From: Candidatus Hydrogenedentota bacterium
GTDB lineage: Bacteria; Hydrogenedentota; Hydrogenedentia; Hydrogenedentales; SLHB01
Assembly (NCBI GenBank): GCA_036789645.1
Contig: DAIQLC010000023.1
Span: forward strand, 1,065 to 65,064
DNA length: 64,000 nt
Direction of reading: 5' to 3'
Notes under the pieces: generated by a model
The model's input: only the letters and a program-made list of their open reading frames with translations
Told to the model about the DNA's origin: nothing
The model's database searches: none
Part shown: positions 5,621-64,000 of the stretch, in pieces
How the letters are laid out: every line of letters begins with the position of its first letter
How positions within the stretch are numbered: the stretch's first letter is position 1
Position numbers and translations under genes: made by a program

Positions 5621-6192
5621 TTGGTTTCCTGAAAGGCACCGTCACTCCCAAAGACTGGATGTTCGTCGGCGTTATCCTGGGGCTGACCGCCCTGCTGTGC
5701 GCCGTCTTCTACTTCCTGGTCTACCAGCCGGAACTTCAGCGTCTCGACCAGACCCGGAAAGAGCTGGCCGACGCGCAGACCGAGCTCGCGAACCGCAAGC
5801 AACTGGCCGCGAACATCGACGCCCTGCGTGCGGACACCGCCCAGATCCGGGAACTGGTGAGCGATTTCGAGGAACGCCTGCCCTCCGAGCGCGAGATTGC
5901 CACGCTCCTCACCCAGTTCGAGGACATCGCCGGAGACGTGGGCGGGCTCGATGTGCAGATGCGCGCCCAGATCGCCCGCCCGGAGGGCGCCAAACTCACC
6001 ATCCCTTACCGCATTGTGGTTCGTGGAAGTTTTCACGACATTGCCGAGTTCATCAACCGCCTGGAACGGTTCAAGCGGTACCTGAAGGTCTCCGAACTCC
6101 AGGTCGGGCCCGAAAAAGACGGGGTGTCGGAGGCTGAATTCACCCTGAGCACCTATACCTTCGTAGAAAACGATACGGAGGGCGCGGCGTGA
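5617..6192 (+). CDS. pilO: Type IV pilus inner-membrane component PilO
   Basis: 191 aa with a single N-terminal TM and coiled coil. 4-bp overlap with pilN. Position matches a pilMNOPQ operon. Confidence 0.8.
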   Translation: MIGFLKGTVTPKDWMFVGVILGLTALLCAVFYFLVYQPELQRLDQTRKELADAQTELANRKQLAANIDALRADTAQIRELVSDFEERLPSEREIATLLTQFEDIAGDVGGLDVQMRAQIARPEGAKLTIPYRIVVRGSFHDIAEFINRLERFKRYLKVSELQVGPEKDGVSEAEFTLSTYTFVENDTEGAA

Positions 6193-6851
6193 ACAAGAAG
6201 ATCACAAAAATCGTGTTCCTCGCGATCCTTGGCCTGGTTGCGGCGTACTTTGTGGTGACCCGCGTACTGACCGAGTCTCCCGAGGACAAACAGTGGCGTG
6301 AGCAGTACGAGGCCAATCAGAAGGCGCGCGAAAGCGGCCAGGCGCCCGCGGCCACCGCGGCAGCCGGTTCCGGCGGCGCATCGACCGCGGCCCCGGCGGC
6401 GGCCGGCAGCCCCGCCGCCGCCAGTACCGCGGCGATCGACTTCGAGCAGCTCGCCTCCGGCATCAAGGAAATCGAGTTCGACTACGATGCCATCCGGAAG
6501 ACCGAGCAGCGCCGCAATCCCATGGCGCCGCTGGTGGGTCCCTACGTTGCGCCGGCCGTTATGGCGGCGTCAGGGCCTGGCGAAGCGGCCAACACAAACG
6601 ACGAAGCCATCGTGTCCGCGATTCGCCGCAACCTGCTGTTGTCGGGGATCATGTGGCACCCGACCGCACCCGTCGCGATCATCAACAATGAAGCAATTCC
6701 TGCCGGCTACACCTTCCCGAACGAGATGTTCCGCACAGCTCGCTCGGCAAGCGGCCTGGAGGATGCGGTTACCGTCAAGAGCATGACGCAACACAGCGTG
6801 ATTCTGAAATACAAAGACTCGGAAATCACCCTGGAGCTGAAGGAGCGGTAA
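6189..6851 (+). CDS. pilP: PilP-like lipoprotein/periplasmic pilus component (divergent, Ala/Pro-rich linker)
   Basis: Fourth gene of the operon. N-terminal TM or lipoprotein-like anchor, a low-complexity AAAPAAAGSPAAAS linker and a C-terminal beta domain. Assigned mainly by position. Confidence 0.55.
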   Translation: MNKKITKIVFLAILGLVAAYFVVTRVLTESPEDKQWREQYEANQKARESGQAPAATAAAGSGGASTAAPAAAGSPAAASTAAIDFEQLASGIKEIEFDYDAIRKTEQRRNPMAPLVGPYVAPAVMAASGPGEAANTNDEAIVSAIRRNLLLSGIMWHPTAPVAIINNEAIPAGYTFPNEMFRTARSASGLEDAVTVKSMTQHSVILKYKDSEITLELKER

Positions 6852-6852
6852 G

Positions 6853-9024: not shown

Positions 9025-9040
9025 CCGGGCCCGCATCCAA

Positions 9041-9077
9041 ACGGCCACAAGCCTCACCGCTTGCGGCCGTTTTTTTG
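9041..9077 (+). terminator. Rho-independent terminator after pilQ (12-bp stem, 1 mismatch, T7 tract); may also serve the convergent dnaE2
   Basis: acggccacaagc-ctcacc-gcttgcggccgt-ttttttt, read directly. Confidence 0.65.
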
Positions 9078-9146
9078 TGGCCGGGCGCGACACCCTGGTC
9101 TCTCCCCGCCGCCCGGCGGGACGCCGGCATCCTGCGCGTCTCTCCC

Positions 9147-12100
9147 CTACTCTTCCCGCGCGCCGGGGAAAATCCAGTGTTTGGGCGGGGTAATGTCGGA
9201 CGCCCCGGGCGACTTGGGCGTGGCGTCCACCCGTTCGAGTTCCTCGACGATGAGCGAACAGTAATCGTCGTCGTTCTGCACCCTGCCCAGGACAAAATAC
9301 GGCCCGTGGGAATCGAGCAGGCGCCCGTACCGCTGGTAGGTTTCGGGAAACAGGACGCCTTCGAACACGCCTTTGGGGTCTTCGAACGTGCAGAACTTCA
9401 TGCAGCCGCGCCCCTTGAGTCCCACACGCCGTTCGGCGATCAGCCATCCGACCAGCATCACGACGCGGTCCACGTAGCGCGGCAGGTCGGCGCTGCTGAC
9501 GAGGGCGCGTTCCTGAAACAGCGACGCATAGTACTCGAGCGGATGGGTCGACACGACGAGTCCCAGCGCTTCCCATTCCTGATCGGTGCGCTTTTTCCGT
9601 GACACGTCAGGCAGCCGGGGCACGGTACGATACTCTCCCCCATGTTCGCGGAACAGGCGGTCCGCGCCGGCAGGCGTTTCCCCGTGTCCGCCCTGCGACA
9701 GCAGATGCAGTTCCCAGAACAACGCGGGACGCGTCCGGCCGAAGGCGTCGAACGCGCCGGCCTGAAGCAACGCCTCCGCCTCGGGACGCGTGATGCCGGC
9801 GCGGGCCCACACGTCCGCGAGACTTTCGAACGGGCGGTTCGCGCGCCCGGCGAGAATGGCCTCGACAGTGTCCTGAGCGAGTTGGCGCACTTCAACGAAA
9901 CCCACCCGGATGGCATCGCCTTCGGCGACGTATTCGCACCGGCTCTTGTTGATGTCCGGCGGGCGCACTTCGATGCCCAGCCGCCGGGCCTCTTCCACGT
10001 AGACCGCGGGATGATAGAAGCCCCCCCGGTTCGACAGCACGCAGGCCATGAACTCGGCCGGGAAATGGGCCTTCAGATACGTGCACTGGTAGGCGATTTC
10101 GCCATAGGTTGCCGCGTGCGCTTTGCAATACGAATATGCGGCGAAATTGGCAATGAGCCCCCAGATCTCCTCGGCGACGGCCTCCGCGATCCCGTTCGCG
10201 ACCGCCTTTTCGATGAAGGTCTTCATGCTCTTCGCCATTTCCCGGGGCGAGCGTTTCTTGGTCATGGCGCGGCGCAACAGGTCGCCCTCGGCCAGGTCCA
10301 TCCCCGCGATGACATTCGCCACCTTGAGAATGTCTTCCTGATAGAGCATCACGCCGCAGGTATCGCCGAGCACGCGTTCGAGCGCGGGGTGCAGGTACTC
10401 GACCGGCTCCCTGCCAAGGTGGCGCGCGATGAAACGCTTTTTCATGCCGCTGCCCGAGGGACCGGGCCGGACCAGCGACAGGGTTTTGATGAGCATGTCG
10501 GTATCGGCGGCCTGCGTGTTGCGCAGGAGCGTGCGCATGGCAGGCGACTCGATCTGGAAACAACCGATGGTGCGCCCGTTGCGAATCAGGTCCGCCGTGT
10601 TCGGGTCGGGTTCCGGGAGGTTCTCGACATCGAGCCGGATGCCCCGGTTGTCCCACACCTGCTGAACCGTCTCGTCGATCACCGTCAGCGAACGGTGACC
10701 CAGAAGATCCATCTTGATGAGACCCAGGTGCTCGATGGGATGCATATCGTACTGCGTCACCACAAAACCTTTCGCGGCCCGTTGAAGCGGCACGAATCGC
10801 GTGAGCGGCTCGGGCGCGATCACCAGCCCGCACGGATGCAGCGCGATGTGACGCGGATACTGGTCTATCGCTTCGGCGATGGCCACGATGGACCGCAGCG
10901 GCTCCTCGTGGATGGGCAGTTCGCGGCACTCGGGCAGGTGGCGCACAACGGTCTGGATGTCGCCCGCGTGGTAATGAGGCAAGCGGCGCGTCACCTCCCC
11001 GATCTCGCTGCCGGTGAGTCCCATGGCCTTCGCGACTTCCCGCACCGACGACCGGGCCTGGAAGGTGTTGAACGTGGCGATCATGGCAACGTGCCCGGCC
11101 CCGTACCGCTCATACACGTAATTCACCACGCGGTCGCGGCGGCGCCAGCAGATGTCGAGATCGATGTCCGGACAATCGCTCCGGGACGGATTCAGAAACC
11201 GCTCGAAATACAGATCGTACTTGAACGGATCCACCCGCGTGATGCCCAGCGCATACGCCACGAGACTGTTCGCGGCGGAACCGCGTCCCACGACGGGAAT
11301 GTCGCGAGCACGGGCGAAGTTGACGATGTCCTCCACGATGATGAAGTACGGGGCGAACCCGAGACGCTCGATGATGTCCAGTTCATGATGCAGCCGTTCG
11401 ATAACGCGGCGGTTCAGCGGCGTGTACCGGCGTTTTACCCCCTCGAAAGCGAGTTTCCACAGGTGCGAAAACGGCGTCTCGCCGCCGGGCAGTTCCACCC
11501 CGGGAAACAACGGCCTGCCGAGCGGCAGTTCGAGCCGGCATTCCTCCGCCACCCATTCCGCATTGCGCAGCGCGTCGGGCCAATCGACGTACAGGCGGCG
11601 CATCTCCTCCGGCGGCCGGAACCAGCAGGCGGCGTCCGCGGCATCGCCCGTTTCCAGCGTATCGACGGTGGCGTTGCAGCGAATGGCCGACAACACCCGG
11701 TGCACGCGGTACTCCTCGGGCTGCAAAAAGTACACGGGGTTCACCGCGACGCAGCGCAACCCGAGTTCGGCGGCCAAATCGTGCAGCCGGGTCGCCCGGT
11801 AACGCGAGACCGCGTCGCCATGATGGGTCAGGGCCACCAGCGGGTTCAGGCCATTCCGGTGAAGCCGCCGGATGCGTTCGGCGTCATCCGCGAGCACGAA
11901 CACGCGGCCGCATTCGAGCAAGCGGGCCGCCAGGTCGAAGGCCTCCTCGAGATGGTATGCGGTCACCAGGCGGCACAACTGGGCGTAGCCTTCCCGGTCG
12001 CGGGCCAGCAAGACGGTATGCTCCAGGAATACCCCGATAATGGGCTTGATGCCCGCGGCACGGGCCGCCCGGTAAAACGGCACCGCTCCATACAGCCCCC

Positions 12101-49240: not shown

Positions 49241-52177
49241 ATGGGGGACGAGAACCCGGATCAAGGGTACCAGGCGGCCCAGGTTCTGTTCCAGCAGCAA
49301 CGTTATGCCGAGTCCCTCGCGCTTCTTGACCGGCTGCTAAACAGCCATCCCGGCGCGCCCGAACTCCACTACGCCCGGGCTCTCTGTCTCAGCCGGCTCG
49401 GACGCCTTGGCGAAGCGGTCCAGACCTGCGACCGCCTCATCCGCGATTTCAGGCACGAGAATGCCCAGCGGCTCAAAGTGCAAATACTGACGAGACAAGC
49501 GAGTCCGCACGCTCCGGTTGCGCGTGTGCAGGAGCCGGGCCGGTACGCACAGCCGGGAAAGGCCCGGGGCAAACCCGTTCTGCTGGGCGCGGTCGCCCTC
49601 GCCGCCGCGGTCGTGCTCATGGGCCTGGGTATGCTGCTCGGAAGGGGCACGACCGGCCCCGAAGAGCGCCGCGCGCGTGACGCGGCCACATTGCCTCCTC
49701 CGTCTCCCGCCACGACGGCCCCACCCTTGCAGAGAGGCTTCGCACTGCTCGCCTCGTCCGTCGGAAGCACGTATCATGTCGAGGACGTGGCCGCATTCGC
49801 GGAACAAGGCGGGTTCGCGCTGGTGATCGTCGACTGGGCATGGATAACTCACCACTGGGAACAGACCCGTTTCGACGAATTGCAGACGCTGGTGGCCGCA
49901 CTCCATGCCAGAGGCATCCGCACCGCCGCCATGTACCGTCCCCGCTTCCTCTCGGATCCGACCGTGCCGACGCAGACCAAAGCCGACGGCAGCAATGCCT
50001 TTTCCCACGGGTACCAGATTAACTACTTCGACCCGGCCGCCCGTCAATGGGGCATCGAATGGGGGACCAGGATTCTCAGACAGTGTCCTGTCTTCGACGA
50101 GCTGATCATCTACAACCCGCTTAATCTCGACGACAGCCCGGCAGCGCGGGAACAGCTCGCCCGGAACCCCCATGCCCGCGACGACGCGATCTGGACCTTC
50201 ATGGAAGAGGCTCGCGCGGCCTGGCAGGCGGTACGGCCGGGCATCCAGACGGGCGTCGTTGCGATGCCGTCCCCGGAGTTCTGGGAGCGCGGGAGCAACT
50301 GCTTCGATTCCGCCTATCCCTTCTTTGTGCTACGTGACCATACCCCTATCGAGGAAGAGCTGCGGAATTTCCGTGTCATGCGCACGTCGATGGGGGACAC
50401 CCTGAAAGCGGTTCTCGCCAAAGTGACCTGGGAATCCGGCGAGCGCGTTTCACCCGAGCGTCTCCGCGACTTCCAGGCCGCGGCACAAACGGAGAACATC
50501 CCGCATGTCTTCTGGACCCTGGAAACACTGGCCGACCCCGCCCGGTACAGTCCACGTGAGACGGCCGAAGCCCTCGCGGTGGATGAAGACCGGCTGGCCG
50601 CGCTATTCGCAACCGCGCCCCCGGCCCCCGCGGTGACTGTAACACGTGCGCAGGTCGACGAGCTTTTCAACACCATCGACAAGTTCGATACGAATGAACA
50701 GAAGGCAGAGAACATCAAGCGGCTGGCCGACCTTGCCAAGTCCGCGGACCCGGAAATGGCTGAATACCTTCTGCAGCAAGGACAGGACATCGTCCTGGAC
50801 ACATCCCGCGGCATCAACCAGCGCTGGATGATCTGTTACGTGCTCAGCGATTCCGGCGACGAGCGCACCGTGCCTGTCTTGAACCGTGTTTTGCGCGAGG
50901 ACCCCTCCCCCCTGGTCCGCGGGGTGGCTGCCTGCGCCCTCGGCTCGTTCAGCAGCCCTGAGGCGCTGGCCGCGCTCGAACAGGCGCCGTTGGCCGAACG
51001 CGATCCGGGTGTTCTGCGTGAGATCGCCCGGTCCCGCGAGCGTCAGGAGCAGCTCCGGACCCACGCAGGGGGCCCGGCCACAAGCGCGCCCCCGCCCGCC
51101 ACGCACGAGCCCGCGTTGACGCTGCCGTTCGACGAAGCGCGGGCCGAAAAGCTGCCCTGGCCGCATCAGTCCCCCGACATGCAGCCGGCCGACGCCGAGC
51201 GCCTGGCGCGCGACGTCTGGGTCATCAACGATTTTCCCATCTTTCAGGGCGACCAGGAAGGCAGAAACTGTTACTTTCACGCCGCCTTCGACGTTGTGCT
51301 TCCCAATGGCACCCCCATCTACGCGGTGAAAGACGGCTGGGTGAAGGCAATTCGCCATTCGACGGTCTACATCGCGGACGCCCGGGACGGCGCGCCCTGC
51401 TACGGCTGGGAGTATACCCACCTCGGCAATTTCCAGGTGCGAGAGGGCGAATTCATAAAACGCGGCGCCTGCGTTGGTGAAGTGCAGTTCGAAGGGCTCG
51501 AACACATCCACCTCGCCAACGTGTTTTCAGAAGGCCCGTACTGGGGGGCCTGGCACTATTACTGCGCGCCCAACGCCCACTTTGCCTGCACCGACACCGA
51601 GCCGCCCGTCATCGCGTCGGTCCATTTCTTCAAGAACAACACGGACGAGGCCTTCCCGATCGATGCTTCGGGATTGGTCACGGTCACCGGCGACGTCGAC
51701 ATCGTCGCCGCCATACGCGATCCGGGCGAGATGGCCCGTTCGCGAGAGAACGGGTTCGGCGACCGGCTGGGCGTCGACCGGCTCGACTATGCCATTCACC
51801 GCGCTGAAGACACAGACGCTCTTGTCCGCCGGCGCAGTTTTGAGTTCAGCCGCCTCTACATCAAGAAGGCGTACGACAATCCGGAATTCAACACCAGGCA
51901 GACCGCGCTCGTCTTTAAGCACTGGGCACTGTTCGAGGGGCACCGCGCGCGTTACGACAAGACGCTGTCCTACTACATCATCACCAATTGCGCCGGCGAC
52001 AAACCGCCCCAGACCGTCGACACCGTGGACGGCAAGCACTGCTGGCGCACGGGCGCACGCAGCGCGGAGGGCGTCCCGCTCTTCCCCGACGGGGAATATG
52101 CGATCAGCATCGAGGCCACGGATTTCGCCGGCAACCGCGCCGAGCAGACCTTCCGCGTGAACGTCAGGAATCCGTGA
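49241..52177 (+). CDS. Multidomain protein: TPR, TM anchor, glycoside-hydrolase-like TIM barrel, HEAT repeats and C-terminal M23 (LytM-type) metallopeptidase domain
   Basis: GGAGG RBS. TM segment VLLGAVALAAAVVLMGLGMLL. HEAT repeats (PLVRGVAACALGSFSSPEALAALEQA). M23 motifs HxxxD (YFHAAFD) and HxH (EHIHL) with a conserved Gly-rich core. Confidence 0.6.
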   Translation: MGDENPDQGYQAAQVLFQQQRYAESLALLDRLLNSHPGAPELHYARALCLSRLGRLGEAVQTCDRLIRDFRHENAQRLKVQILTRQASPHAPVARVQEPGRYAQPGKARGKPVLLGAVALAAAVVLMGLGMLLGRGTTGPEERRARDAATLPPPSPATTAPPLQRGFALLASSVGSTYHVEDVAAFAEQGGFALVIVDWAWITHHWEQTRFDELQTLVAALHARGIRTAAMYRPRFLSDPTVPTQTKADGSNAFSHGYQINYFDPAARQWGIEWGTRILRQCPVFDELIIYNPLNLDDSPAAREQLARNPHARDDAIWTFMEEARAAWQAVRPGIQTGVVAMPSPEFWERGSNCFDSAYPFFVLRDHTPIEEELRNFRVMRTSMGDTLKAVLAKVTWESGERVSPERLRDFQAAAQTENIPHVFWTLETLADPARYSPRETAEALAVDEDRLAALFATAPPAPAVTVTRAQVDELFNTIDKFDTNEQKAENIKRLADLAKSADPEMAEYLLQQGQDIVLDTSRGINQRWMICYVLSDSGDERTVPVLNRVLREDPSPLVRGVAACALGSFSSPEALAALEQAPLAERDPGVLREIARSRERQEQLRTHAGGPATSAPPPATHEPALTLPFDEARAEKLPWPHQSPDMQPADAERLARDVWVINDFPIFQGDQEGRNCYFHAAFDVVLPNGTPIYAVKDGWVKAIRHSTVYIADARDGAPCYGWEYTHLGNFQVREGEFIKRGACVGEVQFEGLEHIHLANVFSEGPYWGAWHYYCAPNAHFACTDTEPPVIASVHFFKNNTDEAFPIDASGLVTVTGDVDIVAAIRDPGEMARSRENGFGDRLGVDRLDYAIHRAEDTDALVRRRSFEFSRLYIKKAYDNPEFNTRQTALVFKHWALFEGHRARYDKTLSYYIITNCAGDKPPQTVDTVDGKHCWRTGARSAEGVPLFPDGEYAISIEATDFAGNRAEQTFRVNVRNP

Positions 52178-52271
52178 GTGCAGGCTCCGGGCACTGGCAG
52201 GGGCCATCCCGTCCCGTCCTGGATGCCCGCAATGGAACCGCGAGACGCCTGCGCGGCACGGGCACCGACGC

Positions 52272-54791
52272 TCATTCCACCACCCGGTACTCCATCAGCA
52301 GCGACCCCGGGGCTTCTTCGATACGCGCATCGAAATTGGCGAGCTCGGCCCCTGTCATCCGGACGGGCGCCTCGGGCACATACCCGCGCGACACGGTGAC
52401 GTCGTATTCGGCGTCGGGACGAATCCCCCGCAGAGGACACGCGAAACCGGTGTAGGGCGACGCGGGCCGCCGGAACGCCAGCACCATCCCCTCGCCGGAG
52501 CCGGCAAGATGATACTGCATCACCAGCCATGCGGAGGGCTCGATCGAGACGTCGGACAGCGCATAGAAATCGCCGGGATAGTACTTCCGAATGCGTTTCC
52601 CCTCGGCAATTGCCGCGGCGAGCTGGTCACGCGGATAATCCGCCGCGCGGATGTCTTCGCTGAACGCCATACCTCCGTTGAACCCGCTGCGGAACAGGTA
52701 CGGCGTCACGCCCATCTGGCCACTGGTGTGGAACGGCAGGTACCGGTTCAGTCCGGCGGTGATGACCTGGTTGCGCAGGGCCGCCTCCGCGTAGTTCTTC
52801 TCCAACAGCGGTATGATGGTGCCGTCGGTCCGCCACAGGGGGATGGACCGCGCACACAATTCGAGATCGATGCGCTGCCCGCCCGAGGCGCAGTTGTCGA
52901 TGAACAGGCCGGGATGGGCGGCCAGGAGATCGTCCCACATGCGATAGAGCCCCTCGACGTACCGTACTTCGTCGATGCCCGCACGGTCCGGGTCCCGTTC
53001 ATCGAGAATCCCCCACAACACATCGTAATCCACCGCATTGTCGATGCGCAGGCACTCGATGCCGTACGCGTCGATAGCGGCGTTCAGGTACTCCGTCGCG
53101 TACTGCCGGGCCTCGGGAATGGCCAGATTGATCATGCCGCCATGCCCCATGCGCTCCGGCGGAGGCATCACCACCCATTCGGGATGCTCCTGGTCCATCA
53201 AGGACCCCGGGGAGATGCGCTCCGGCTCGAACCACAACAGGAACTTCATGCCGGCGTCGTGGGCGGCCCTCGAAATCGGCGCCAGCCCGTTCGGGAAGCG
53301 GTTCTTGTCGACTTCGCGGTCGACGGGCAACACGTAATGCCCGATGACCGGAAAGCGGGTGATGCCGCGGTACGCGTCCAGCCAGAAATATTCGAACCCC
53401 AGGCCTTTGGCGGATTCGAGATGCGCCATCACGTCGGCCTCGGTGCCGTCGTCCATCTCGTAGAACGAGGTGCTCATGTGCGCGATCGGCGGCACAACGG
53501 GCTGTCCGTCAATCTTCGGCATGATATGGCGCAGCATCACCTGCCGGAACGCGTTATAGCCGTACCAGACATCGTCGCCCTGCCAGTAGACCTGCAGGAT
53601 ACGCGGCCCGCGCACCGTTTCGCCGGGTCTCAGCTTCGCGCGGAACTTCTCGAGGCCCGCCTGAAGCCGAAGGGTCTGGCCGCTGTGCTCGACCGAGGCC
53701 GTCCAGCGCCCCGTCCAGCCAATGGCCGTGACCACGCCCCCGCCCTGCCACGCGCAGGTGAAAAACGGCGACGCGCCTTTCGACGACCGCCCCGACTGCG
53801 GCTGAATCGTGACCGCGTGTCCGTCTGCGACCCCCTGTGAGAAGGGACGCCAGTCGGTCGCGCCTGCGATGCTCCCTTCGAGCTGGTGCAGCACCGGTTC
53901 CGCGACGTCCGGGATCACGACATCCAGCGAACGAATTGCTTCGAGCACCGGCGAATCCGCAGTGCCGGTATTGGTGAAGTAGAGCGTCCAGTCCACCCCC
54001 GGTACATCGGTATACAGCGTGCAGACGGCGCGCACTTCGAGGCCCGTGGCCGGATCGCGCAGGGTCAGTGTGCGCGTGCGCGGCCCGTCTCCCGGCGCCG
54101 GGCCGTCCACCGACTGTTCCCACGCGCTCAGCAATTCCGAGGAGGGCTTCCCGCCATACACAAACGAAAACGGAGGCCGATCGAGGTACGACGGAGTGAA
54201 ATCCAGTTCGTCGAGCCACAGGACGGCGCCGCTGGCGAGCGTCACCCGTGCATCGCCCCAGTCTCCCTGGTCGAAGTACCGGTTGTCGCCGCCGGTGTCG
54301 ACCACCAGGTCGAACTCTTGCGCGCCGCTCAACGGAACCTCGATGGATTGCACCGGATCGCCCGGGCGCATCACCTCCGTCTCGAAAACCGTCTCACCGG
54401 CCACGAGCACCTGGAACCGCACCGAGGCGGCGCTCCCGTCGACATTGCGGTCGAGCCCGATGTCCGCGGCGAATTCCCGGGCCGGCTCCGCAAGGCTCAC
54501 CCGCAGGACGCTGTGGGAATTGACGCCGATGCCGTGTTCGTAGACCCGCTCGCCCAGGCGCAACGGGCCCCCGAAATTACAGCGCCGGAGCTTGGTCTCT
54601 CCGGCGCCGTCTTCATGAACCACCACCAGCCGGTTGCGCGGCGTCCTGTCCGGAGTGCGCGCCGCGAACGCGCGTTCGGCCCACGCGATGGTGCGCTGCG
54701 CGTCCGCGGCGTAATCCGTCGCGGCCGCCGCACCGCCGCCCGCAAGAACCGCTGCGATCCCCAGACCCACGCAAAGCACGACACCACGCAT
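52272..54791 (-). CDS. Secreted NPCBM-domain + GH36-like (alpha-galactosidase/melibiase superfamily) glycoside hydrolase
   Basis: Signal peptide. N-terminal NPCBM-like segment (GIGVNSHSVLRV...ADIGLDRNVDGSAASVRFQV). TIM barrel with IDNCASGGQRID resembling the GH36 CxSGGGRxD motif. Confidence 0.6.
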   Translation of the reverse strand: MRGVVLCVGLGIAAVLAGGGAAAATDYAADAQRTIAWAERAFAARTPDRTPRNRLVVVHEDGAGETKLRRCNFGGPLRLGERVYEHGIGVNSHSVLRVSLAEPAREFAADIGLDRNVDGSAASVRFQVLVAGETVFETEVMRPGDPVQSIEVPLSGAQEFDLVVDTGGDNRYFDQGDWGDARVTLASGAVLWLDELDFTPSYLDRPPFSFVYGGKPSSELLSAWEQSVDGPAPGDGPRTRTLTLRDPATGLEVRAVCTLYTDVPGVDWTLYFTNTGTADSPVLEAIRSLDVVIPDVAEPVLHQLEGSIAGATDWRPFSQGVADGHAVTIQPQSGRSSKGASPFFTCAWQGGGVVTAIGWTGRWTASVEHSGQTLRLQAGLEKFRAKLRPGETVRGPRILQVYWQGDDVWYGYNAFRQVMLRHIMPKIDGQPVVPPIAHMSTSFYEMDDGTEADVMAHLESAKGLGFEYFWLDAYRGITRFPVIGHYVLPVDREVDKNRFPNGLAPISRAAHDAGMKFLLWFEPERISPGSLMDQEHPEWVVMPPPERMGHGGMINLAIPEARQYATEYLNAAIDAYGIECLRIDNAVDYDVLWGILDERDPDRAGIDEVRYVEGLYRMWDDLLAAHPGLFIDNCASGGQRIDLELCARSIPLWRTDGTIIPLLEKNYAEAALRNQVITAGLNRYLPFHTSGQMGVTPYLFRSGFNGGMAFSEDIRAADYPRDQLAAAIAEGKRIRKYYPGDFYALSDVSIEPSAWLVMQYHLAGSGEGMVLAFRRPASPYTGFACPLRGIRPDAEYDVTVSRGYVPEAPVRMTGAELANFDARIEEAPGSLLMEYRVVE

Positions 54792-54845
54792 GGCCCAGTT
54801 TCTCCGCGCGCTCATGCGCTTCCGGACACGCCGCCAGCGCCGCGC

Positions 54846-55751
54846 TTATTGCGCGACGAGTTGCTCGACGAATTCGCGCGCGCGTTTCGCCTCGGCCAGC
54901 AATTGCGCTTCGTCGCCGGGCTTGAGGCACTCCACAACCAGCGCGCCTTTCGTGAACCCGCCCTGCTTGAGCCGGGCCAGCACCTTCGCGAAGTCGACCA
55001 TGCCGTCGCCGGGCGTGACCGCGACTTCCTTGGGATGCACGTAATCCTTCACGCACATGCCCACGACCAGGCCGTCCACCGTCGCGGCATCGTCCACGGG
55101 GCTGAGCGCGCCATCCGAGTAGTAATAGATGTTGCCCGGGTCGTACCAGATCCGGAAATTCTTGTGGCCCACGGTCTCCTCGACGGTCTTGCGGCACTGG
55201 GGCCCCGTCGCATTGAGCCCGCCATGGGGTTTCACGCTGATCCCGATGCCCTTCTCCGCGGCGTAGTCGCAGGTCTCGGCGATCGCCTGGTAGTAGAGCG
55301 CGTACAGCGTCTCGTCTCCGATGCCGCCCATCAGCAGGTTTTCGGCCTTCACGATGGCGCAGTTGTCAATGAGCGTACGCATGCCCGCGATGCCGGCCTC
55401 GAGCGATTCGTTGACCGGAATGCCCCCGCCGTATACCGACGGAACCTGGAGCCCGCGTTTCGCGCATTCTTCGGCGACCTGCTGGGCCTCTTCCGGCGTG
55501 GTCTTGACTGAAACGACCAGGTGGGTATCGTTGTTGGTCGTCATCAGCCCCGCATACTTGTAACCGGCCGCCGCGATGGCGTCGAGCGCCACGCGGTAGT
55601 CCAGTTTGTCCCACGGGCGGGTATAGATGCCGATCTTCCACGGGCCGCCGGCTGGGGATTCGGCCGCTGAGGCCCCCAGCGCCACGGCCGCAAGACCGGC
55701 CGCTCCGAACTGGGCGGAGCGGCCGAGAAACTCGCGTCGAGTGCTTTTCAT
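54846..55751 (-). CDS. Sugar-phosphate isomerase/epimerase (xylose-isomerase-like TIM barrel) with twin-arginine signal
   Basis: RREFLGRSAQFGAAGLAAVALGASA TAT motif, 301 aa. Its first 63 codons are duplicated at 59116-59304. Confidence 0.85.
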   Translation of the reverse strand: MKSTRREFLGRSAQFGAAGLAAVALGASAAESPAGGPWKIGIYTRPWDKLDYRVALDAIAAAGYKYAGLMTTNNDTHLVVSVKTTPEEAQQVAEECAKRGLQVPSVYGGGIPVNESLEAGIAGMRTLIDNCAIVKAENLLMGGIGDETLYALYYQAIAETCDYAAEKGIGISVKPHGGLNATGPQCRKTVEETVGHKNFRIWYDPGNIYYYSDGALSPVDDAATVDGLVVGMCVKDYVHPKEVAVTPGDGMVDFAKVLARLKQGGFTKGALVVECLKPGDEAQLLAEAKRAREFVEQLVAQ

Positions 55752-55790
55752 AGTGCGATGTCCTTCATCGTAAACCCTGTTTGTGACAGA

Positions 55791-57041
55791 TCAGGCGCTG
55801 CGCATTTCGCGCTTGTCCGCGTCGTAGATCTGCCGCTGGCCGGTGTTGCAGGCCCGCATGGCCAACAGCACCGCGACGGCGTGCTGGTACCCGGCATCGA
55901 GCGACGCGTTCGGGGTCTCGCGGCTGCGCAGGCACTGGAGCCAGTCCAGGAAGTGGTCCGCGCGCTCGACAGGCGCCACGTCCTGCTTTTCAAAGGTCTC
56001 GCCCTTGGCCGTATTGATTCCGTCCGACGTCAGCACGGGCTGATTCCAGTTCTGGCAGTCCAGCACCGCGGTGTCGCCGAAGAACTTGAAGGAGTTCCCG
56101 CTGCCGTTGCCGAAATGGGTCGAATACGACACCATGAATCCTTCCGGGTACTCCCACAGGGCGTGCACATGGTCATGGCACGTGAAGTTGTAATCGTCCT
56201 TCCACGTGTAGGTCCCGCCCATGCAGACCGCCGACGTCGGGAACGCCGCCCCCGTGATGTAGTGGACCAGATCGATGAAATGGCTGCCCAGCCCCGGCAC
56301 CGGACCGTCCGAGAAGTCCCGGTAACCGTACCACCCGGAATACTGCGCGGCACTGAACGGCCGCGGCTCGCGGTCCGCCAGAAACTCGTTCCAGTCCACA
56401 TCCGCCTCGTTGACTTCCTTCACGTAGGAATACCAATACGGCTGGGGGGCGTTGCGGCACTGTTCGATGCGTCCCACGGTGCCCAGCTTGCCGGACCGGT
56501 AGACTTCCCGCGCGCCGGTCATGCTGGCCATGCTGCGCAACTGGGTGCCGGCCTGGAACACCACGCCATTCGCCTTGACCGCGTCGCAGGCGGCCTTGAG
56601 CTGGTCGAAATCCATGGCCAGGGGCTTTTCGCAGTAGATGTCTTTCTTCGCCTCGGCCGCGGCCTTCATGTGGGTGGTGTGCAGGTGGTCGCACGACGCA
56701 ATCATGACCGCGTCAATATCTTCCAGGGCGACCAGATCCCGGTACGAGACAAACTGGCGGGCTTCACGGCCGTACCAGCTCTTGGTGTCCGCCGCGGCCC
56801 GCTCGCGGTTCACCTTCCAGGGATCGCAGACCGCGGTGATTTCGACGTTCTGCTCTTCAGAGTAGCGGTGTATGTTGGTCATGTGGGCGTTGCGGCCGCG
56901 TTCGCCGCAGCCGATGATGCCGATGGAAATGCGCTCATTCGCGCCCTTGATCCGCGCGTAACTCGCGGCGCTCATACTGATCGCCGCCGCGCCAACGGCG
57001 GCGTTGCGAAAAAACTGACGACGGGTCGTGCCTTGTGACAT
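55791..57041 (-). CDS. Gfo/Idh/MocA-family oxidoreductase with twin-arginine signal (copy 1 of 2)
   Basis: AGGAGG RBS. MSQGTTRRQFFRNAAVGAAAISMSAA TAT motif. IGIIGCGERG Rossmann, EKP motif. Identical to 59344-60594. Confidence 0.85.
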   Translation of the reverse strand: MSQGTTRRQFFRNAAVGAAAISMSAASYARIKGANERISIGIIGCGERGRNAHMTNIHRYSEEQNVEITAVCDPWKVNRERAAADTKSWYGREARQFVSYRDLVALEDIDAVMIASCDHLHTTHMKAAAEAKKDIYCEKPLAMDFDQLKAACDAVKANGVVFQAGTQLRSMASMTGAREVYRSGKLGTVGRIEQCRNAPQPYWYSYVKEVNEADVDWNEFLADREPRPFSAAQYSGWYGYRDFSDGPVPGLGSHFIDLVHYITGAAFPTSAVCMGGTYTWKDDYNFTCHDHVHALWEYPEGFMVSYSTHFGNGSGNSFKFFGDTAVLDCQNWNQPVLTSDGINTAKGETFEKQDVAPVERADHFLDWLQCLRSRETPNASLDAGYQHAVAVLLAMRACNTGQRQIYDADKREMRSA

Positions 57042-57312
57042 GGGATGACCTCCTGTTCTTTGTCTTGGCCGGCAAACGGTCTTATCATACCGATTCATCG
57101 GCCAAAGTAAAAGCGCGCGCACAACACAGGTCTCGCCATGCCATCCCGCCGGTTCAACAACAAGGTCCGGCTCTCGCCAAAAGAAAGGCGCGGCCACACT
57201 GCTTATGACCGCGCCACCACACGAGGACTTTTGTCTCGGGCTCGACCCGTCCGTCACGCCGACGCCTCCGGCCTGTCGCGACACTCAAAACGAGGTCCGG
57301 CAGGCGCGTTTG

Positions 57313-57939
57313 TCAGGCGCGCCGAATGCGCCGCAGAACAAGACCCGCCAAACCCAGCCCGATGATGGAGATCGTAGCCGGCTCCGGAACGACTGGGCTT
57401 TCAAGCAGCGTTACCGATGCATACACATCCGCGCAGCTGGTGCCGAACAGCCCGTCGGGTCCAGTCCACACGCCATTTCGAAGGCTGATATCGCTCAACT
57501 GGAGAGCGAACCGGCCCCCGTTCTCAAAGCTGAACTCAACCGGATCGTCCCAGACTAGGTCCCAACCCTGCTCATACCCAAACCACGCACCCGAAAAACC
57601 GACCGATGTTCCATCCACGCTGCCCGTAAGGAGGGGCACGTCGAATGCGATATGCGCGACAACGGATCCCGGGACAAGATCATCGCCCTCCACCCAGTCC
57701 TCATAAGTGCCCATCCACGCAAAATGAATCGGGACGCTCGTTTCGCCTTCAGACAGGGTCAACACCACGTTCTCGAACGAGCTGTTGACATGCGCCCACA
57801 GTTCGAGTCCGTCAGCGGTTCCCGACGTGTCAATCCACGAACCTGCACCCATCTCGAAAGCGCACGGGTCCGCCAACGCCTGTCCCCCCATACACACAAC
57901 ACTCATCGTCGCGAGCGCAAGAAAACCCACTTTTCGCAT
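57313..57939 (-). CDS. PEP-CTERM sorting-domain protein (putative exosortase substrate), copy 1 of 2
   Basis: GAGGAGG RBS. Signal peptide. C-terminal VPEPATISIIGLGLAGLVLRRIRRA is a PEP + TM + Arg-rich tail. Identical to 60866-61492. Confidence 0.8.
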   Translation of the reverse strand: MRKVGFLALATMSVVCMGGQALADPCAFEMGAGSWIDTSGTADGLELWAHVNSSFENVVLTLSEGETSVPIHFAWMGTYEDWVEGDDLVPGSVVAHIAFDVPLLTGSVDGTSVGFSGAWFGYEQGWDLVWDDPVEFSFENGGRFALQLSDISLRNGVWTGPDGLFGTSCADVYASVTLLESPVVPEPATISIIGLGLAGLVLRRIRRA

Positions 57940-58349
57940 GTGTAAACCTCCTCTACTAGTCTGTTGTTTAACATTGTGCAACGTCTATCCACCTAACTGT
58001 CTAAAATCCAGGCCACTCAACTTTTATATGACTTTTCCCGCAGATAGGTGGAGCAAGGTCCATGCCAAATGCCTGGGTATCCCTAAGACTATGAATCCAA
58101 GTGTTTTAAGTTATTCACTGTCGTCTGAAGCGTGTAACGATGACTGCCTTTAGATAATAAATATTCATTTCTGAGTAACTATTTACAGTATTCAGGCAAG
58201 AAACCTCGACGGATGCGGTTGATGTCACCACGGACCCTCATACTTCGGTGCTCGGTCTGCTTTCTTGCACACCGAGTTCTGTTTCGCTATTGTTTGTAGC
58301 AGCACGCCAATTCAGGAAGACAACGACACCGACTCAGGGAGCTTGGATC

Positions 58350-59306
58350 ATGCCGCGCAAACCGGTCCTTCTCGCGATTCTCATGGCACTGGCCCTCTCC
58401 GGAACTGTTTTCGCGGACGGCCCGCCTCTGGACGGCATCCTGAAGGCCGCGGGCGTCGACGACCCGTCCAACATGGTCCGCCGCTACATGCTCACGGAGG
58501 TCGAAGCCACGTGGACCGCCTGGCAGGAGGCGTACGAGGCGCGCACCGAGCCCGCCGCCATCGCGCAGCATTACCGGGCGCTTCAGGCAAAATTCATCGA
58601 ACGCCTCGGGGGATTTCCCGAGAGAACCCCGCTGAATCCGCAGATTACAGGGGTAATCCAGCGCAACGGCTACCGCGTTGAGAAGGTCCTGTTTGAAAGC
58701 CAGCCCCGGCATTACGTCACCGCCCTGCTGTTTGTGCCGGAACAGCCCGAATACGCCCCGCCATACCCCGGCGTGCTGGTGCCGTGCGGGCACGCGCAGG
58801 ACGCCAAACACCACGAACCGTACCAGTCCGTGGGAGCGCTCCTGGCCCTCAACGGCATGGTCGCGCTCGTGTTCGACCCCATCGAGCAGGGGGAACGGTG
58901 CCAATACCTCGACGAAACCGGCAAAGCGCCCTATCAGGGAACCACCGCCCACACCATGAGCGGCGCGGGAAGCATCCTCCTCGGGAGAAACACCGCCACC
59001 TACGAGATCTGGGACGGCATGCGCGGCATCGACTACCTCCAGTCGCGCCCGGAAGTCGCTCCGGAACGCATCGGCATCACCGGCAACAGCGGCGGCGGCA
59101 CCCAGACCTCGTATAACCGGCCGCCGCGATGGCGTCGAGCGCCACGCGGTAGTCCAGTTTGTCCCACGGGCGGGTATAGATGCCGATCTTCCACGGGCCG
59201 CCGGCTGGGGATTCGGCCGCTGAGGCCCCCAGCGCCACGGCCGCAAGACCGGCCGCTCCGAACTGGGCGGAGCGGCCGAGAAACTCGCGTCGAGTGCTTT
59301 TCATAG
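58350..59306 (+). pseudogene. 5' fragment (290 codons) of the tandem alpha/beta-hydrolase gene, truncated at the duplication junction and reading out of frame into unrelated sequence
   Basis: Identical to 61903-62667 up to ...GNSGGGTQTSY at 59114, then diverges (NRPPRWRRAPRG...). Same promoter region as the intact copy. Confidence 0.7.
59077..59304 (-). pseudogene. 5' fragment (63 codons) of the xylose-isomerase-like gene created by the tandem duplication
   Basis: MKSTRREFLGRSAQ...DAIAAAGY is identical to the N-terminus of the 54846-55751 product, then junction-derived residues follow. Confidence 0.7.
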
Positions 59307-59343
59307 TGCGATGTCCTTCATCGTAAACCCTGTTTGTGACAGA

Positions 59344-60594
59344 TCAGGCGCTGCGCATTTCGCGCTTGTCCGCGTCGTAGATCTGCCGCTGGCCGGTGTT
59401 GCAGGCCCGCATGGCCAACAGCACCGCGACGGCGTGCTGGTACCCGGCATCGAGCGACGCGTTCGGGGTCTCGCGGCTGCGCAGGCACTGGAGCCAGTCC
59501 AGGAAGTGGTCCGCGCGCTCGACAGGCGCCACGTCCTGCTTTTCAAAGGTCTCGCCCTTGGCCGTATTGATTCCGTCCGACGTCAGCACGGGCTGATTCC
59601 AGTTCTGGCAGTCCAGCACCGCGGTGTCGCCGAAGAACTTGAAGGAGTTCCCGCTGCCGTTGCCGAAATGGGTCGAATACGACACCATGAATCCTTCCGG
59701 GTACTCCCACAGGGCGTGCACATGGTCATGGCACGTGAAGTTGTAATCGTCCTTCCACGTGTAGGTCCCGCCCATGCAGACCGCCGACGTCGGGAACGCC
59801 GCCCCCGTGATGTAGTGGACCAGATCGATGAAATGGCTGCCCAGCCCCGGCACCGGACCGTCCGAGAAGTCCCGGTAACCGTACCACCCGGAATACTGCG
59901 CGGCACTGAACGGCCGCGGCTCGCGGTCCGCCAGAAACTCGTTCCAGTCCACATCCGCCTCGTTGACTTCCTTCACGTAGGAATACCAATACGGCTGGGG
60001 GGCGTTGCGGCACTGTTCGATGCGTCCCACGGTGCCCAGCTTGCCGGACCGGTAGACTTCCCGCGCGCCGGTCATGCTGGCCATGCTGCGCAACTGGGTG
60101 CCGGCCTGGAACACCACGCCATTCGCCTTGACCGCGTCGCAGGCGGCCTTGAGCTGGTCGAAATCCATGGCCAGGGGCTTTTCGCAGTAGATGTCTTTCT
60201 TCGCCTCGGCCGCGGCCTTCATGTGGGTGGTGTGCAGGTGGTCGCACGACGCAATCATGACCGCGTCAATATCTTCCAGGGCGACCAGATCCCGGTACGA
60301 GACAAACTGGCGGGCTTCACGGCCGTACCAGCTCTTGGTGTCCGCCGCGGCCCGCTCGCGGTTCACCTTCCAGGGATCGCAGACCGCGGTGATTTCGACG
60401 TTCTGCTCTTCAGAGTAGCGGTGTATGTTGGTCATGTGGGCGTTGCGGCCGCGTTCGCCGCAGCCGATGATGCCGATGGAAATGCGCTCATTCGCGCCCT
60501 TGATCCGCGCGTAACTCGCGGCGCTCATACTGATCGCCGCCGCGCCAACGGCGGCGTTGCGAAAAAACTGACGACGGGTCGTGCCTTGTGACAT
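59344..60594 (-). CDS. Gfo/Idh/MocA-family oxidoreductase with twin-arginine signal (copy 2 of 2)
   Basis: 100% identical to 55791-57041 at the translation level and in the sampled nucleotide stretches. Confidence 0.85.
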   Translation of the reverse strand: MSQGTTRRQFFRNAAVGAAAISMSAASYARIKGANERISIGIIGCGERGRNAHMTNIHRYSEEQNVEITAVCDPWKVNRERAAADTKSWYGREARQFVSYRDLVALEDIDAVMIASCDHLHTTHMKAAAEAKKDIYCEKPLAMDFDQLKAACDAVKANGVVFQAGTQLRSMASMTGAREVYRSGKLGTVGRIEQCRNAPQPYWYSYVKEVNEADVDWNEFLADREPRPFSAAQYSGWYGYRDFSDGPVPGLGSHFIDLVHYITGAAFPTSAVCMGGTYTWKDDYNFTCHDHVHALWEYPEGFMVSYSTHFGNGSGNSFKFFGDTAVLDCQNWNQPVLTSDGINTAKGETFEKQDVAPVERADHFLDWLQCLRSRETPNASLDAGYQHAVAVLLAMRACNTGQRQIYDADKREMRSA

Positions 60595-60865
60595 GGGATG
60601 ACCTCCTGTTCTTTGTCTTGGCCGGCAAACGGTCTTATCATACCGATTCATCGGCCAAAGTAAAAGCGCGCGCACAACACAGGTCTCGCCATGCCATCCC
60701 GCCGGTTCAACAACAAGGTCCGGCTCTCGCCAAAAGAAAGGCGCGGCCACACTGCTTATGACCGCGCCACCACACGAGGACTTTTGTCTCGGGCTCGACC
60801 CGTCCGTCACGCCGACGCCTCCGGCCTGTCGCGACACTCAAAACGAGGTCCGGCAGGCGCGTTTG

Positions 60866-61492
60866 TCAGGCGCGCCGAATGCGCCGCAGAACAAGACCCG
60901 CCAAACCCAGCCCGATGATGGAGATCGTAGCCGGCTCCGGAACGACTGGGCTTTCAAGCAGCGTTACCGATGCATACACATCCGCGCAGCTGGTGCCGAA
61001 CAGCCCGTCGGGTCCAGTCCACACGCCATTTCGAAGGCTGATATCGCTCAACTGGAGAGCGAACCGGCCCCCGTTCTCAAAGCTGAACTCAACCGGATCG
61101 TCCCAGACTAGGTCCCAACCCTGCTCATACCCAAACCACGCACCCGAAAAACCGACCGATGTTCCATCCACGCTGCCCGTAAGGAGGGGCACGTCGAATG
61201 CGATATGCGCGACAACGGATCCCGGGACAAGATCATCGCCCTCCACCCAGTCCTCATAAGTGCCCATCCACGCAAAATGAATCGGGACGCTCGTTTCGCC
61301 TTCAGACAGGGTCAACACCACGTTCTCGAACGAGCTGTTGACATGCGCCCACAGTTCGAGTCCGTCAGCGGTTCCCGACGTGTCAATCCACGAACCTGCA
61401 CCCATCTCGAAAGCGCACGGGTCCGCCAACGCCTGTCCCCCCATACACACAACACTCATCGTCGCGAGCGCAAGAAAACCCACTTTTCGCAT
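60866..61492 (-). CDS. PEP-CTERM sorting-domain protein, copy 2 of 2
   Basis: Identical to 57313-57939. Confidence 0.8.
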   Translation of the reverse strand: MRKVGFLALATMSVVCMGGQALADPCAFEMGAGSWIDTSGTADGLELWAHVNSSFENVVLTLSEGETSVPIHFAWMGTYEDWVEGDDLVPGSVVAHIAFDVPLLTGSVDGTSVGFSGAWFGYEQGWDLVWDDPVEFSFENGGRFALQLSDISLRNGVWTGPDGLFGTSCADVYASVTLLESPVVPEPATISIIGLGLAGLVLRRIRRA

Positions 61493-61902
61493 GTGTAAAC
61501 CTCCTCTACTAGTCTGTTGTTTAACATTGTGCAACGTCTATCCACCTAACTGTCTAAAATCCAGGCCACTCAACTTTTATATGACTTTTCCCGCAGATAG
61601 GTGGAGCAAGGTCCATGCCAAATGCCTGGGTATCCCTAAGACTATGAATCCAAGTGTTTTAAGTTATTCACTGTCGTCTGAAGCGTGTAACGATGACTGC
61701 CTTTAGATAATAAATATTCATTTCTGAGTAACTATTTACAGTATTCAGGCAAGAAACCTCGACGGATGCGGTTGATGTCACCACGGACCCTCATACTTCG
61801 GTGCTCGGTCTGCTTTCTTGCACACCGAGTTCTGTTTCGCTATTGTTTGTAGCAGCACGCCAATTCAGGAAGACAACGACACCGACTCAGGGAGCTTGGA
61901 TC

Positions 61903-63945
61903 ATGCCGCGCAAACCGGTCCTTCTCGCGATTCTCATGGCACTGGCCCTCTCCGGAACTGTTTTCGCGGACGGCCCGCCTCTGGACGGCATCCTGAAGGC
62001 CGCGGGCGTCGACGACCCGTCCAACATGGTCCGCCGCTACATGCTCACGGAGGTCGAAGCCACGTGGACCGCCTGGCAGGAGGCGTACGAGGCGCGCACC
62101 GAGCCCGCCGCCATCGCGCAGCATTACCGGGCGCTTCAGGCAAAATTCATCGAACGCCTCGGGGGATTTCCCGAGAGAACCCCGCTGAATCCGCAGATTA
62201 CAGGGGTAATCCAGCGCAACGGCTACCGCGTTGAGAAGGTCCTGTTTGAAAGCCAGCCCCGGCATTACGTCACCGCCCTGCTGTTTGTGCCGGAACAGCC
62301 CGAATACGCCCCGCCATACCCCGGCGTGCTGGTGCCGTGCGGGCACGCGCAGGACGCCAAACACCACGAACCGTACCAGTCCGTGGGAGCGCTCCTGGCC
62401 CTCAACGGCATGGTCGCGCTCGTGTTCGACCCCATCGAGCAGGGGGAACGGTGCCAATACCTCGACGAAACCGGCAAAGCGCCCTATCAGGGAACCACCG
62501 CCCACACCATGAGCGGCGCGGGAAGCATCCTCCTCGGGAGAAACACCGCCACCTACGAGATCTGGGACGGCATGCGCGGCATCGACTACCTCCAGTCGCG
62601 CCCGGAAGTCGCTCCGGAACGCATCGGCATCACCGGCAACAGCGGCGGCGGCACCCAGACCTCGTATCTCATGGCCCTCGACGAACGCATCGGCGCCGCT
62701 GCGCCGAGTTGTTACCTGAACCTCCTCAAACGCCAGGCGGAAAACGCCATGGGCGACGCCGAACAGAACATCTACGGCCAGCTCCGCTGGGGAATGGAAC
62801 ACCCCGACTACGTCATGATGCGCGCGCCCATGCCCGTCAAAATTCTGGCCGCGACCCGCGATTTCTTCGACATCAACGCCACCTGGGTCAATTTCCGGTA
62901 CGCTAAACGCCTGTACACGCGCCTCGGCTTCTCCGAGCGGGTCGACATCCTCGAGAATGACGCCGAACACAACTACGACACGTCCCAGCGCGAGGCGGCC
63001 GTCCGCTGGCTCGCCCGATGGCTGACCGGCGTCGACAAACCCATCACGGAACCCGAACTCGACCTGTTGTCGGTCGAGGAGACCCACTGCACGCCCCAGG
63101 GCGAGGTCATGCGGCTCGAGGGCGCGCGTTCTGTCTACGACGTGAACCGTGAATACCTCGGGGCGCTCGCACCCAAACGCGCGGACTTCCTCAAGAACGC
63201 CGATGACGCCGCCCTGCGGGCCAAGGTGCGGGAAGTCACCGGCATCAGCGATACCGTGGCCCCGCTGGAACCCACGCGCCTGGGCGCCGATGAACGCGGC
63301 GGCATCCGCATCGAAAAACTGGCCCTTTCCAACGGTCTCGGCATAACCCTGCCCGCCGCATACCTCACGAGAGGCAGCGCCGCGCCCGGCGCGGTCACCC
63401 TGTTGCTCCACGAAGCCGGCATCGCCGCCGCCTGCGCGCCCGGCGGGCCCGCCGAAAACCTGCTCGCCGAGGGGCGTGCGGTGCTCGCCGTCGACGTGCG
63501 CGGCACCGGCGAATCCCGCCAGACCGGGCAGACCGCGTTCGGCGAGGCCGTCGGGCTCGACTGGCAAGATTCGCTCATGGCCTACCTCCTCGAGAAGCCC
63601 AACGTGGCCATGCGCGCCGAGGACGTGCTGGCCGCCGCGCACGTTGCGGGACAGCTCGCGGGTGCGGCGCCGGTCCACCTCGTTTCCGTTGGCCACGTGG
63701 GCGTCCCGGCCCTGCACGCCGCCGCCCTCGAACCGGCTCGCTTCGCATCGGTTCGAATCGAGGGCTGCCTGCTCTCGTGGTCCAACGCCATTGAGCTCGG
63801 CATCACCCACAATCAACTGCACAACGCGGTTCACGCCGCATTGTGCTGGTACGATTTCCCGGATCTCGCGCGCCTCGCCGGCGAGCACACCGCCGTCGTC
63901 GCGCCCGTCGACGCGATGGGCAGGCCGGCGGCCCTGAACCAGTAG
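61903..63945 (+). CDS. Secreted tandem alpha/beta-hydrolase (acetyl-xylan-esterase/peptidase-like), intact copy
   Basis: Signal peptide MPRKPVLLAILMALALSGTVFA. First alpha/beta domain with GNSGGG nucleophile elbow. Second alpha/beta-like domain at the C-terminus. 680 aa. Confidence 0.75.
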   Translation: MPRKPVLLAILMALALSGTVFADGPPLDGILKAAGVDDPSNMVRRYMLTEVEATWTAWQEAYEARTEPAAIAQHYRALQAKFIERLGGFPERTPLNPQITGVIQRNGYRVEKVLFESQPRHYVTALLFVPEQPEYAPPYPGVLVPCGHAQDAKHHEPYQSVGALLALNGMVALVFDPIEQGERCQYLDETGKAPYQGTTAHTMSGAGSILLGRNTATYEIWDGMRGIDYLQSRPEVAPERIGITGNSGGGTQTSYLMALDERIGAAAPSCYLNLLKRQAENAMGDAEQNIYGQLRWGMEHPDYVMMRAPMPVKILAATRDFFDINATWVNFRYAKRLYTRLGFSERVDILENDAEHNYDTSQREAAVRWLARWLTGVDKPITEPELDLLSVEETHCTPQGEVMRLEGARSVYDVNREYLGALAPKRADFLKNADDAALRAKVREVTGISDTVAPLEPTRLGADERGGIRIEKLALSNGLGITLPAAYLTRGSAAPGAVTLLLHEAGIAAACAPGGPAENLLAEGRAVLAVDVRGTGESRQTGQTAFGEAVGLDWQDSLMAYLLEKPNVAMRAEDVLAAAHVAGQLAGAAPVHLVSVGHVGVPALHAAALEPARFASVRIEGCLLSWSNAIELGITHNQLHNAVHAALCWYDFPDLARLAGEHTAVVAPVDAMGRPAALNQ

Positions 63946-64000
63946 AAAAAGATGGTGTCGTCATTGTCTATGCGCGAAACGCGGGTGTTCTCCGGCGGAT

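Follow-up and report, generated by a model that had tools for sequence, protein, structure and literature searches.

When a metagenomic contig presents the same few kilobases twice, back to back and without a single difference, is the repeat a property of the bacterium or of the assembler that printed it? The question is raised by a 64,000-nucleotide stretch of Candidatus Hydrogenedentota DNA (GenBank assembly GCA_036789645.1, contig DAIQLC010000023.1, positions 1,065 to 65,064 of the forward strand; the whole stretch is called "the window" below), in which a 3,553-bp unit that runs from inside a xylose-isomerase-like gene to inside an esterase gene, and carries an oxidoreductase gene and a PEP-CTERM protein gene between them, is present in two copies. 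The repeat is probably a genuine tandem segmental duplication, and would be a minority structural variant in a widespread Candidatus Hydrogenedentota population of sewage and anaerobic digesters.

Shifted by 3,553 nucleotides against itself, the window shows one unbroken run of 3,554 matches (55561–59114 against 59114–62667), and no second run of 20 or more matches at that period was found in this self-comparison; the same offset was also returned by a repeat finder (family D1), and the window contains no N. Copy 1 of the unit occupies positions 55561–59113 and copy 2 positions 59114–62667 (3,553 bp plus the shared T at 62667), with an edge that is ambiguous by 1 bp. The copies lie head to tail with nothing between them, copy 2 beginning where copy 1 stops, and their identity is perfect, non-coding stretches included; a perfect 3.5-kb repeat cannot have arisen by chance. 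The single base (T) common to both copies at the join is the only junction microhomology, and the novel junction, represented by the 30-mer at 59099–59128 (CACCCAGACCTCGTA, the shared T and AACCGGCCGCCGCG), has esterase codon 255 on one side and the antisense of isomerase codon 63 on the other. An earlier reading made from the letters alone (the sequence-only reading) had described two identical back-to-back 3,553-bp copies, as the 3,554-match run bears out, and its coordinates for them, 55562–62667, fall inside the 1-bp ambiguity. It had the unit start at isomerase codon 63, in agreement with the 63-codon stub among the open reading frames (ORFs), and end at esterase codon 290; the latter figure has to be corrected, as the breakpoint lies after codon 255 in a gene that all public calls give as 680 amino acids (start at 58350 or 61903), and 290 is reached by counting from a GTG further upstream, at which the longest ORF starts (58248).

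Most carriers of this locus have it once, which is also the ancestral condition: 16 distinct same-species records as well as other species carry it in single copy. These 16 records (99.6–99.9% identical to the window) have both ancestral boundaries, lack the junction 30-mer and include both MEGAHIT (k141_) and SPAdes (NODE_) contigs, and they supply the single-copy arrangement that the sequence-only reading had proposed to look for in related genomes. An identical isomerase protein is present in 454 blocks of a public collection, on contigs from sewage and anaerobic-digester metagenomes; ten long public contigs, 99.6–99.93% identical to the window, have the locus once each, and further same-species records were found through look-ups of the PEP-CTERM and esterase proteins. 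Among named genomes, the closest are Candidatus Hydrogenedentes/Hydrogenedentota metagenome-assembled genomes, among them UBA2224, which is 97% identical at the amino acid and about 92% at the nucleotide level. The locus is also single copy in the other Hydrogenedentota species found (UBA2224, which is our record L014, and L015, L017 and L021), and the junction 30-mer has no match in the GTDB representative genomes, of which the nearest, UBA2224, is single copy. As expected of a tandem duplication, then, relatives have the ancestral single copy and lack the novel junction.

The exact junction 30-mer is present in five public records besides the window (L011/L046, L012/L056, L013/L041, L047 and L048). 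JGI 3300019237 contig Ga0180028_1115270 (2,656 bp) spans the junction with three single nucleotide polymorphisms (SNPs) relative to the window. The 318-codon chimeric ORF created by the junction has been called, as the exact protein, on three contigs of the public collection, and the two of these three that were examined, ERZ2647914 NODE_1957 and ERZ764778 NODE_526, are complete flank-unit-unit-flank arrangements with unique flanks; the third is a contig of 50–200 kb. A look-up of the 75-codon isomerase stub ORF added short junction contigs from JGI 3300009589 and Logan SRR5215119 and found the exact ORF on JGI 3300019237 as well, so that three or more pipelines (MGnify/SPAdes, JGI and Logan) have produced junction records. 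A protein search with a 118-amino-acid junction-spanning peptide returned distant esterase fragments only and no more junction carriers, and a literature search on the sample accessions found nothing. Because the same base-exact junction recurs in five records from different pipelines, it is real DNA and is not private to the window's assembly. One of the records, the JGI junction contig L011/L046 (window 58910–61565), starts 73 nucleotides upstream of the PEP-CTERM start codon, covers the oxidoreductase gene and the isomerase stub and ends 205 nucleotides into the antisense of the truncated esterase; if its dataset is a metatranscriptome, it would represent RNA that reads through the junction.

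The copies are identical within each two-copy assembly and different between assemblies: L012 differs from the window's unit at three sites and L013 at two, and both contigs show each difference in both copies. This combination of variation between assemblies and none within them fits a de Bruijn loop that prints one edge twice, and perfect copy identity is most likely such a product of graph-based assembly; copy number is not readable from an assembly graph (PMC9104695). The identity of the copies is therefore no evidence of recency, and "two copies" is an assembler-level figure. The sequence-only reading had argued that the absence of divergence implies a very recent event, an argument that is not supported, given that sibling two-copy contigs carry SNPs of their own in both copies. 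Junction-bearing contigs have one to three SNPs relative to the window over the stretch shared with each, and the alleles 56447G and 56976A are common to them and to the nearest single-copy contig, L002. With four or more SNP backgrounds carrying it, the junction is older than the spread or mixing of its carrier populations, and since all haplotypes differ by no more than three SNPs over the part of the unit covered, the event is still young in evolutionary terms, yet not private to the window's sample. The simplest reading of these patterns would be that the duplication arose once, within the haplogroup that carries the PEP-CTERM gene, and then spread with some mixing. We note that L047 (JGI 3300009589) and L048 (Logan SRR5215119), which both cover window positions 58853–60181, differ at 58952 (C/T), 162 nucleotides from the junction; the window has C at this site and L012 and L013 have T. 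The two copies may truly differ here, or the site may distinguish co-occurring strains that were collapsed by the assemblers.

Several points weigh against a genuine two-copy duplication. The evidence consists of assembled contigs, and SPAdes contig names give whole-contig coverage, not the depth of the unit or the fraction of cells that carry it; L047 and L048 share both end points, and the same reads may have been assembled more than once among the five public records; and the same end-to-start junction would equally result from a circle of 3,553 bp or from three or more copies in an array. The alternative that survives best is built on this last point; it accepts the junction as real but ascribes the two-copy layout to the assembler, the underlying state being a subpopulation, an array of at least three copies or an excised 3,553-bp circle, with the loop traversed once. 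It is consistent with the facts that every two-copy contig with a visible name is a SPAdes contig (NODE_..._cov_), that the between-sample SNPs sit in both copies of each two-copy contig, that three non-SPAdes records hold the junction and unit sequence only, without flank, and that the C/T difference at 58952 makes the unit polymorphic beside the junction. However, a subpopulation or a larger array remains a tandem duplication, so that the difference is one of degree and not of kind, and only pop-out from a tandem array could make a circle of a unit that has no recombinase, terminal repeats or replication gene and ends inside genes. We consider this alternative distinctly unlikely, and prefer a tandem layout to a circle.

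A pure artefact, in which the junction would exist in no genome and would stem from chimeras in the library or from a false join made in the assembly graph, is very improbable. A mis-traversed graph would give perfect identity of the copies, and junctions with 0–1 bp of microhomology, such as this one, are typical of random chimeras among library molecules (PMC3411829), which is a further point against the duplication; but chimeric molecules do not recur at one and the same base from dataset to dataset, and the junction is not limited to one assembly, was reproduced in at least three pipelines and lies on at least four SNP backgrounds. In addition, SPAdes gave a single copy of the locus in at least ERZ747220, ERZ747221, ERZ778040 and ERZ4240871, and therefore the assembler does not make the loop by itself. 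The assembly artefact that the sequence-only reading had offered as its alternative is thereby largely rejected for the junction itself.

The manner of joining was classified according to whether the outer boundaries bear a homologous-recombination signature or the inner junction shows microhomology, where a homologous (R-D-R-D-R) duplication is recognized by a bracketing direct repeat of at least 35 bp and at least about 92% identity (bioRxiv 10.64898/2026.05.22.727201). The unit boundaries have no such repeat: in-register identity directly outside the repeat is 21–30%, which is the random level, a local alignment of the sequences around the two breakpoints reaches at best a score of 21, where shuffles average 21.9, and neither comparison found a direct repeat or extended homology at the outer boundaries. 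There are no inverted repeats of 30 nucleotides or more in 50000–64000, ORF and Pfam scans found no transposase, integrase or other recombinase ORF in the unit, and there are no terminal direct or inverted repeats at the unit ends, both of which lie inside coding sequences. The unit thus has neither the recombinase or transposase nor the terminal repeats or att-like core of a mobile element or site-specific circle, and a reading as either was rejected for lack of a recombinase and of terminal repeats. Homologous recombination between repeats, or a recurrent, site-specific event driven by a mobile element (insertion sequence, composite transposon or integrative element), is scarcely credible, for while the same junction on several SNP backgrounds could in principle reflect recurrence, and the PEP-CTERM gene lies inside a 1.27-kb variable island, the breakpoints fall in two unrelated coding sequences, the island edges (57054 and 58321) differ from the unit edges (55561 and 59114), and there is one invariant junction. 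Since the breakpoints show neither flanking homology nor a repeat or recombinase, and share 1 bp of microhomology, within the range of none to a few bp that marks the illegitimate type, the origin is non-homologous, which fits what the sequence-only reading had said of the junction.

The sole feature that might relate to the breakpoints, in a search for homology, repeats and hairpins, is an 8-nucleotide perfect inverted repeat (GCGGCGGC and GCCGCCGC) that flanks the new junction at 59089–59099 and 59120–59127, with arms 20–23 nucleotides apart, one from esterase Gly codons and the other from the isomerase. It was set aside as a cause of the breakpoints because it is probably a chance occurrence at 65% GC; inverted repeats do not produce direct duplications, and GGC runs are frequent at that base composition.

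A genuine tandem duplication would have formed by one illegitimate, RecA-independent joining, between sister chromosomes or via template switching, that would have linked esterase codon 255 to isomerase codon 63 over the 1 bp of microhomology and turned the order isomerase-oxidoreductase-PEP-CTERM-esterase into isomerase-[unit]-[unit]-esterase; end joining, template switching and topoisomerase-mediated exchange are not separable as pathways by sequence. Such an event would double, or more than double, the dosage of a twin-arginine-exported Gfo/Idh/MocA sugar-type oxidoreductase and of a PEP-CTERM-anchored secreted protein, and would leave one intact copy of both boundary genes, while the junction would add a truncated esterase fusion ORF and an isomerase stub. 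Once formed, 3.5-kb repeats permit homologous loss or further amplification.

The large ORFs of the unit are the oxidoreductase gene, the PEP-CTERM gene and two gene fragments only, and the ORFs and Pfam matches confirm the order given by the sequence-only reading: intact isomerase, oxidoreductase and PEP-CTERM genes with truncated esterase, isomerase stub, second oxidoreductase and PEP-CTERM pair, intact esterase. The intact xylose-isomerase-like TIM-barrel gene (54846–55751, minus strand; PF01261, 1.8e-22) encodes 301 amino acids with a twin-arginine signal (STRREFL), its first 63 codons fall inside copy 1, and its protein has no PDB sequence match. The 416-amino-acid Gfo/Idh/MocA oxidoreductase (PF01408, PF02894; twin-arginine signal TRRQFF) is encoded on the minus strand at 55791–57041 and, identically, at 59344–60594 in copy 2; in PDB and NCBIfam comparisons it is distantly similar to DgpA, glycoside 3-dehydrogenases and inositol dehydrogenases, in all cases below the family cut-offs. 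Within its gene lies a 37-nucleotide imperfect direct repeat (73%; 56447–56483 and 56885–56921, 438 nucleotides apart, plus the copies of these in the second unit) that is likely a chance or codon-level similarity. The PEP-CTERM protein gene (208 amino acids, minus strand) is at 57313–57939 and, again identical by the 3,553 period and by its ORF, at 60866–61492; it matches PF07589 with 27.9 bits against a cut-off of 20.7, and TIGR02595. Consensus scans placed a terminator-like hairpin (12-bp stem and T-run, minus strand) after the PEP-CTERM gene at 57187–57215 and 60740–60768, and a promoter-like site, also on the minus strand, before the oxidoreductase gene at 57111–57084 and 60664–60637; with these putative signals inside each copy, each could plausibly be expressed independently.

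The intact alpha/beta-hydrolase gene (acetyl-xylan-esterase-like, 680 amino acids, 61903–63945, plus strand), which has weak matches to AXE1, Peptidase_S9 and DLH and whose protein occurs unchanged in 64 blocks of the public collection, has its first 255 codons in copy 2. Its counterpart at the end of copy 1 is the chimeric ORF of 318 codons (58350–59306, plus strand), in which esterase residues 1–255, with a signal peptide and the GNSGG nucleophile motif (Ser247), are followed by a 63-amino-acid out-of-frame tail that is the antisense of the isomerase stub; it has a partial Peptidase_S9 match only. Because the fusion is without the C-terminal 425 residues, which make up most of the hydrolase fold past the nucleophile, it is probably non-functional, and the orphan isomerase 5' fragment (59077–59304, minus strand; 75 amino acids, of which 63 are isomerase codons and 12 a junction-crossing tail) is probably inert as well. 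A GH36/NPCBM glycosidase gene, recognized by ORF and Pfam/NCBIfam scans, lies at 52272–54791 on the minus strand, and the grouping of isomerase-like, oxidoreductase, GH36-like and esterase genes suggests periplasmic sugar or glycoside metabolism, for which we claim no specific substrate.

The locus is variable in two other ways besides the tandem duplication. The PEP-CTERM gene and its AT-rich upstream region form an island of about 1.27 kb and lower GC content (57054–58321, with its copy at 60607–61874). About half of the same-species contigs, and UBA2224, have some 170 bp of unrelated sequence in its place (contigs compared: L001, L003, L004, L006–L009 and L014), and the island is thus a presence/absence polymorphism within the duplicated unit. 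In L021 (JBMNGZ010000005.1, a 1.16-Mb contig), from a different Hydrogenedentales species in which the locus is single copy, the flanks are about 82% identical to the window, and a tract of about 3.9 kb (L021 ~5900–9950, against window ~55900–59114 and 62668–~63300) that includes most of the oxidoreductase gene, the PEP-CTERM island and about two-thirds of the esterase gene has 98–100% identity in most 100-nucleotide windows, dipping to 93–96% near 62700. This is a recent inter-species recombination tract, and the window's species was probably the donor, since over the oxidoreductase gene the tract matches the island-free haplotypes of that species at about 99.3% identity. Such threefold variability leaves room for selection at the locus and is not a demonstration of it. 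A few kilobases past the window's end (64000), downstream of the esterase gene, there is also strain-level variation (L001–L010 and L036–L058), where a 308-amino-acid N_methyl/SBP_bac_10 (DUF1559-type) gene alternates with a 51-amino-acid ORF and DNA methylase, HNH and Vsr cassettes differ between contigs.

The main value of the case is as a worked example of repeat validation from public assemblies: perfect tandem repeats in metagenome contigs can be checked without reads by seeking the junction and the single-copy allele in other public assemblies, and the identity of the printed copies is not to be taken as evidence of age. It is also a record of copy-number polymorphism in an uncultured Hydrogenedentota population of global distribution. 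A bolder reading, that the duplication is a stably kept, positively selected dosage variant at an adaptation hot spot of digester Hydrogenedentota, draws on the transfer of the tract at about 100% identity, the variation of the PEP-CTERM island and the persistence of the junction across datasets, tandem repeats being normally lost fast. We regard it as speculative and rather unlikely, and none of the observations demonstrates a fitness benefit of the duplication. If true, it would be a natural, in-situ case of amplification-driven adaptation in an uncultured phylum, and might point to periplasmic oxidative glycoside cleavage as the selected function; a variant found by read mapping to rise under a reactor condition would likewise be natural adaptive gene amplification.

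Among known systems, assembly-graph loops or "phantom cycles" arise from tandem repeats in metagenome assemblies (PMC9104695), and like them the window's repeat has a unit end that joins its start, identical printed copies and a number of turns that is not fixed by the graph; unlike spurious cycles, its cycle edge is backed by several datasets and assemblers, so the underlying repeat is real. It resembles the tandem amplifications behind heteroresistance and dosage adaptation, reportedly described by Sandegren & Andersson (2009) and Nicoloff et al. (2019), in being an apparently unstable minority copy-number variant that would raise enzyme-gene dosage, and differs from them in that no resistance genes are involved: what is amplified are the genes of a periplasmic sugar-type oxidoreductase and of a PEP-CTERM surface protein. 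The closest comparison is with the class of RecA-independent tandem duplications and amplifications in bacteria, to which Andersson & Hughes (2009) and Reams & Neidle (2004) are said to be guides and of which there are examples in Salmonella, at E. coli lac and ampC, in the cat genes of Acinetobacter baylyi and in Pseudomonas fluorescens SBW25. With the members of this class, as described in PMC1428787 and in the reviews that bioRxiv 10.64898/2026.05.22.727201 cites, the window shares head-to-tail copies of a few kilobases, one novel junction with microhomology of none to a few bp, no flanking repeats, genes cut arbitrarily with one intact copy of each kept, and a remaining population that is single copy. 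Unlike the laboratory cases, the window's duplication comes from wild metagenome populations of an uncultured phylum under no laboratory selection; as a structural variant it is of an ordinary kind, one more example of a well-known type.

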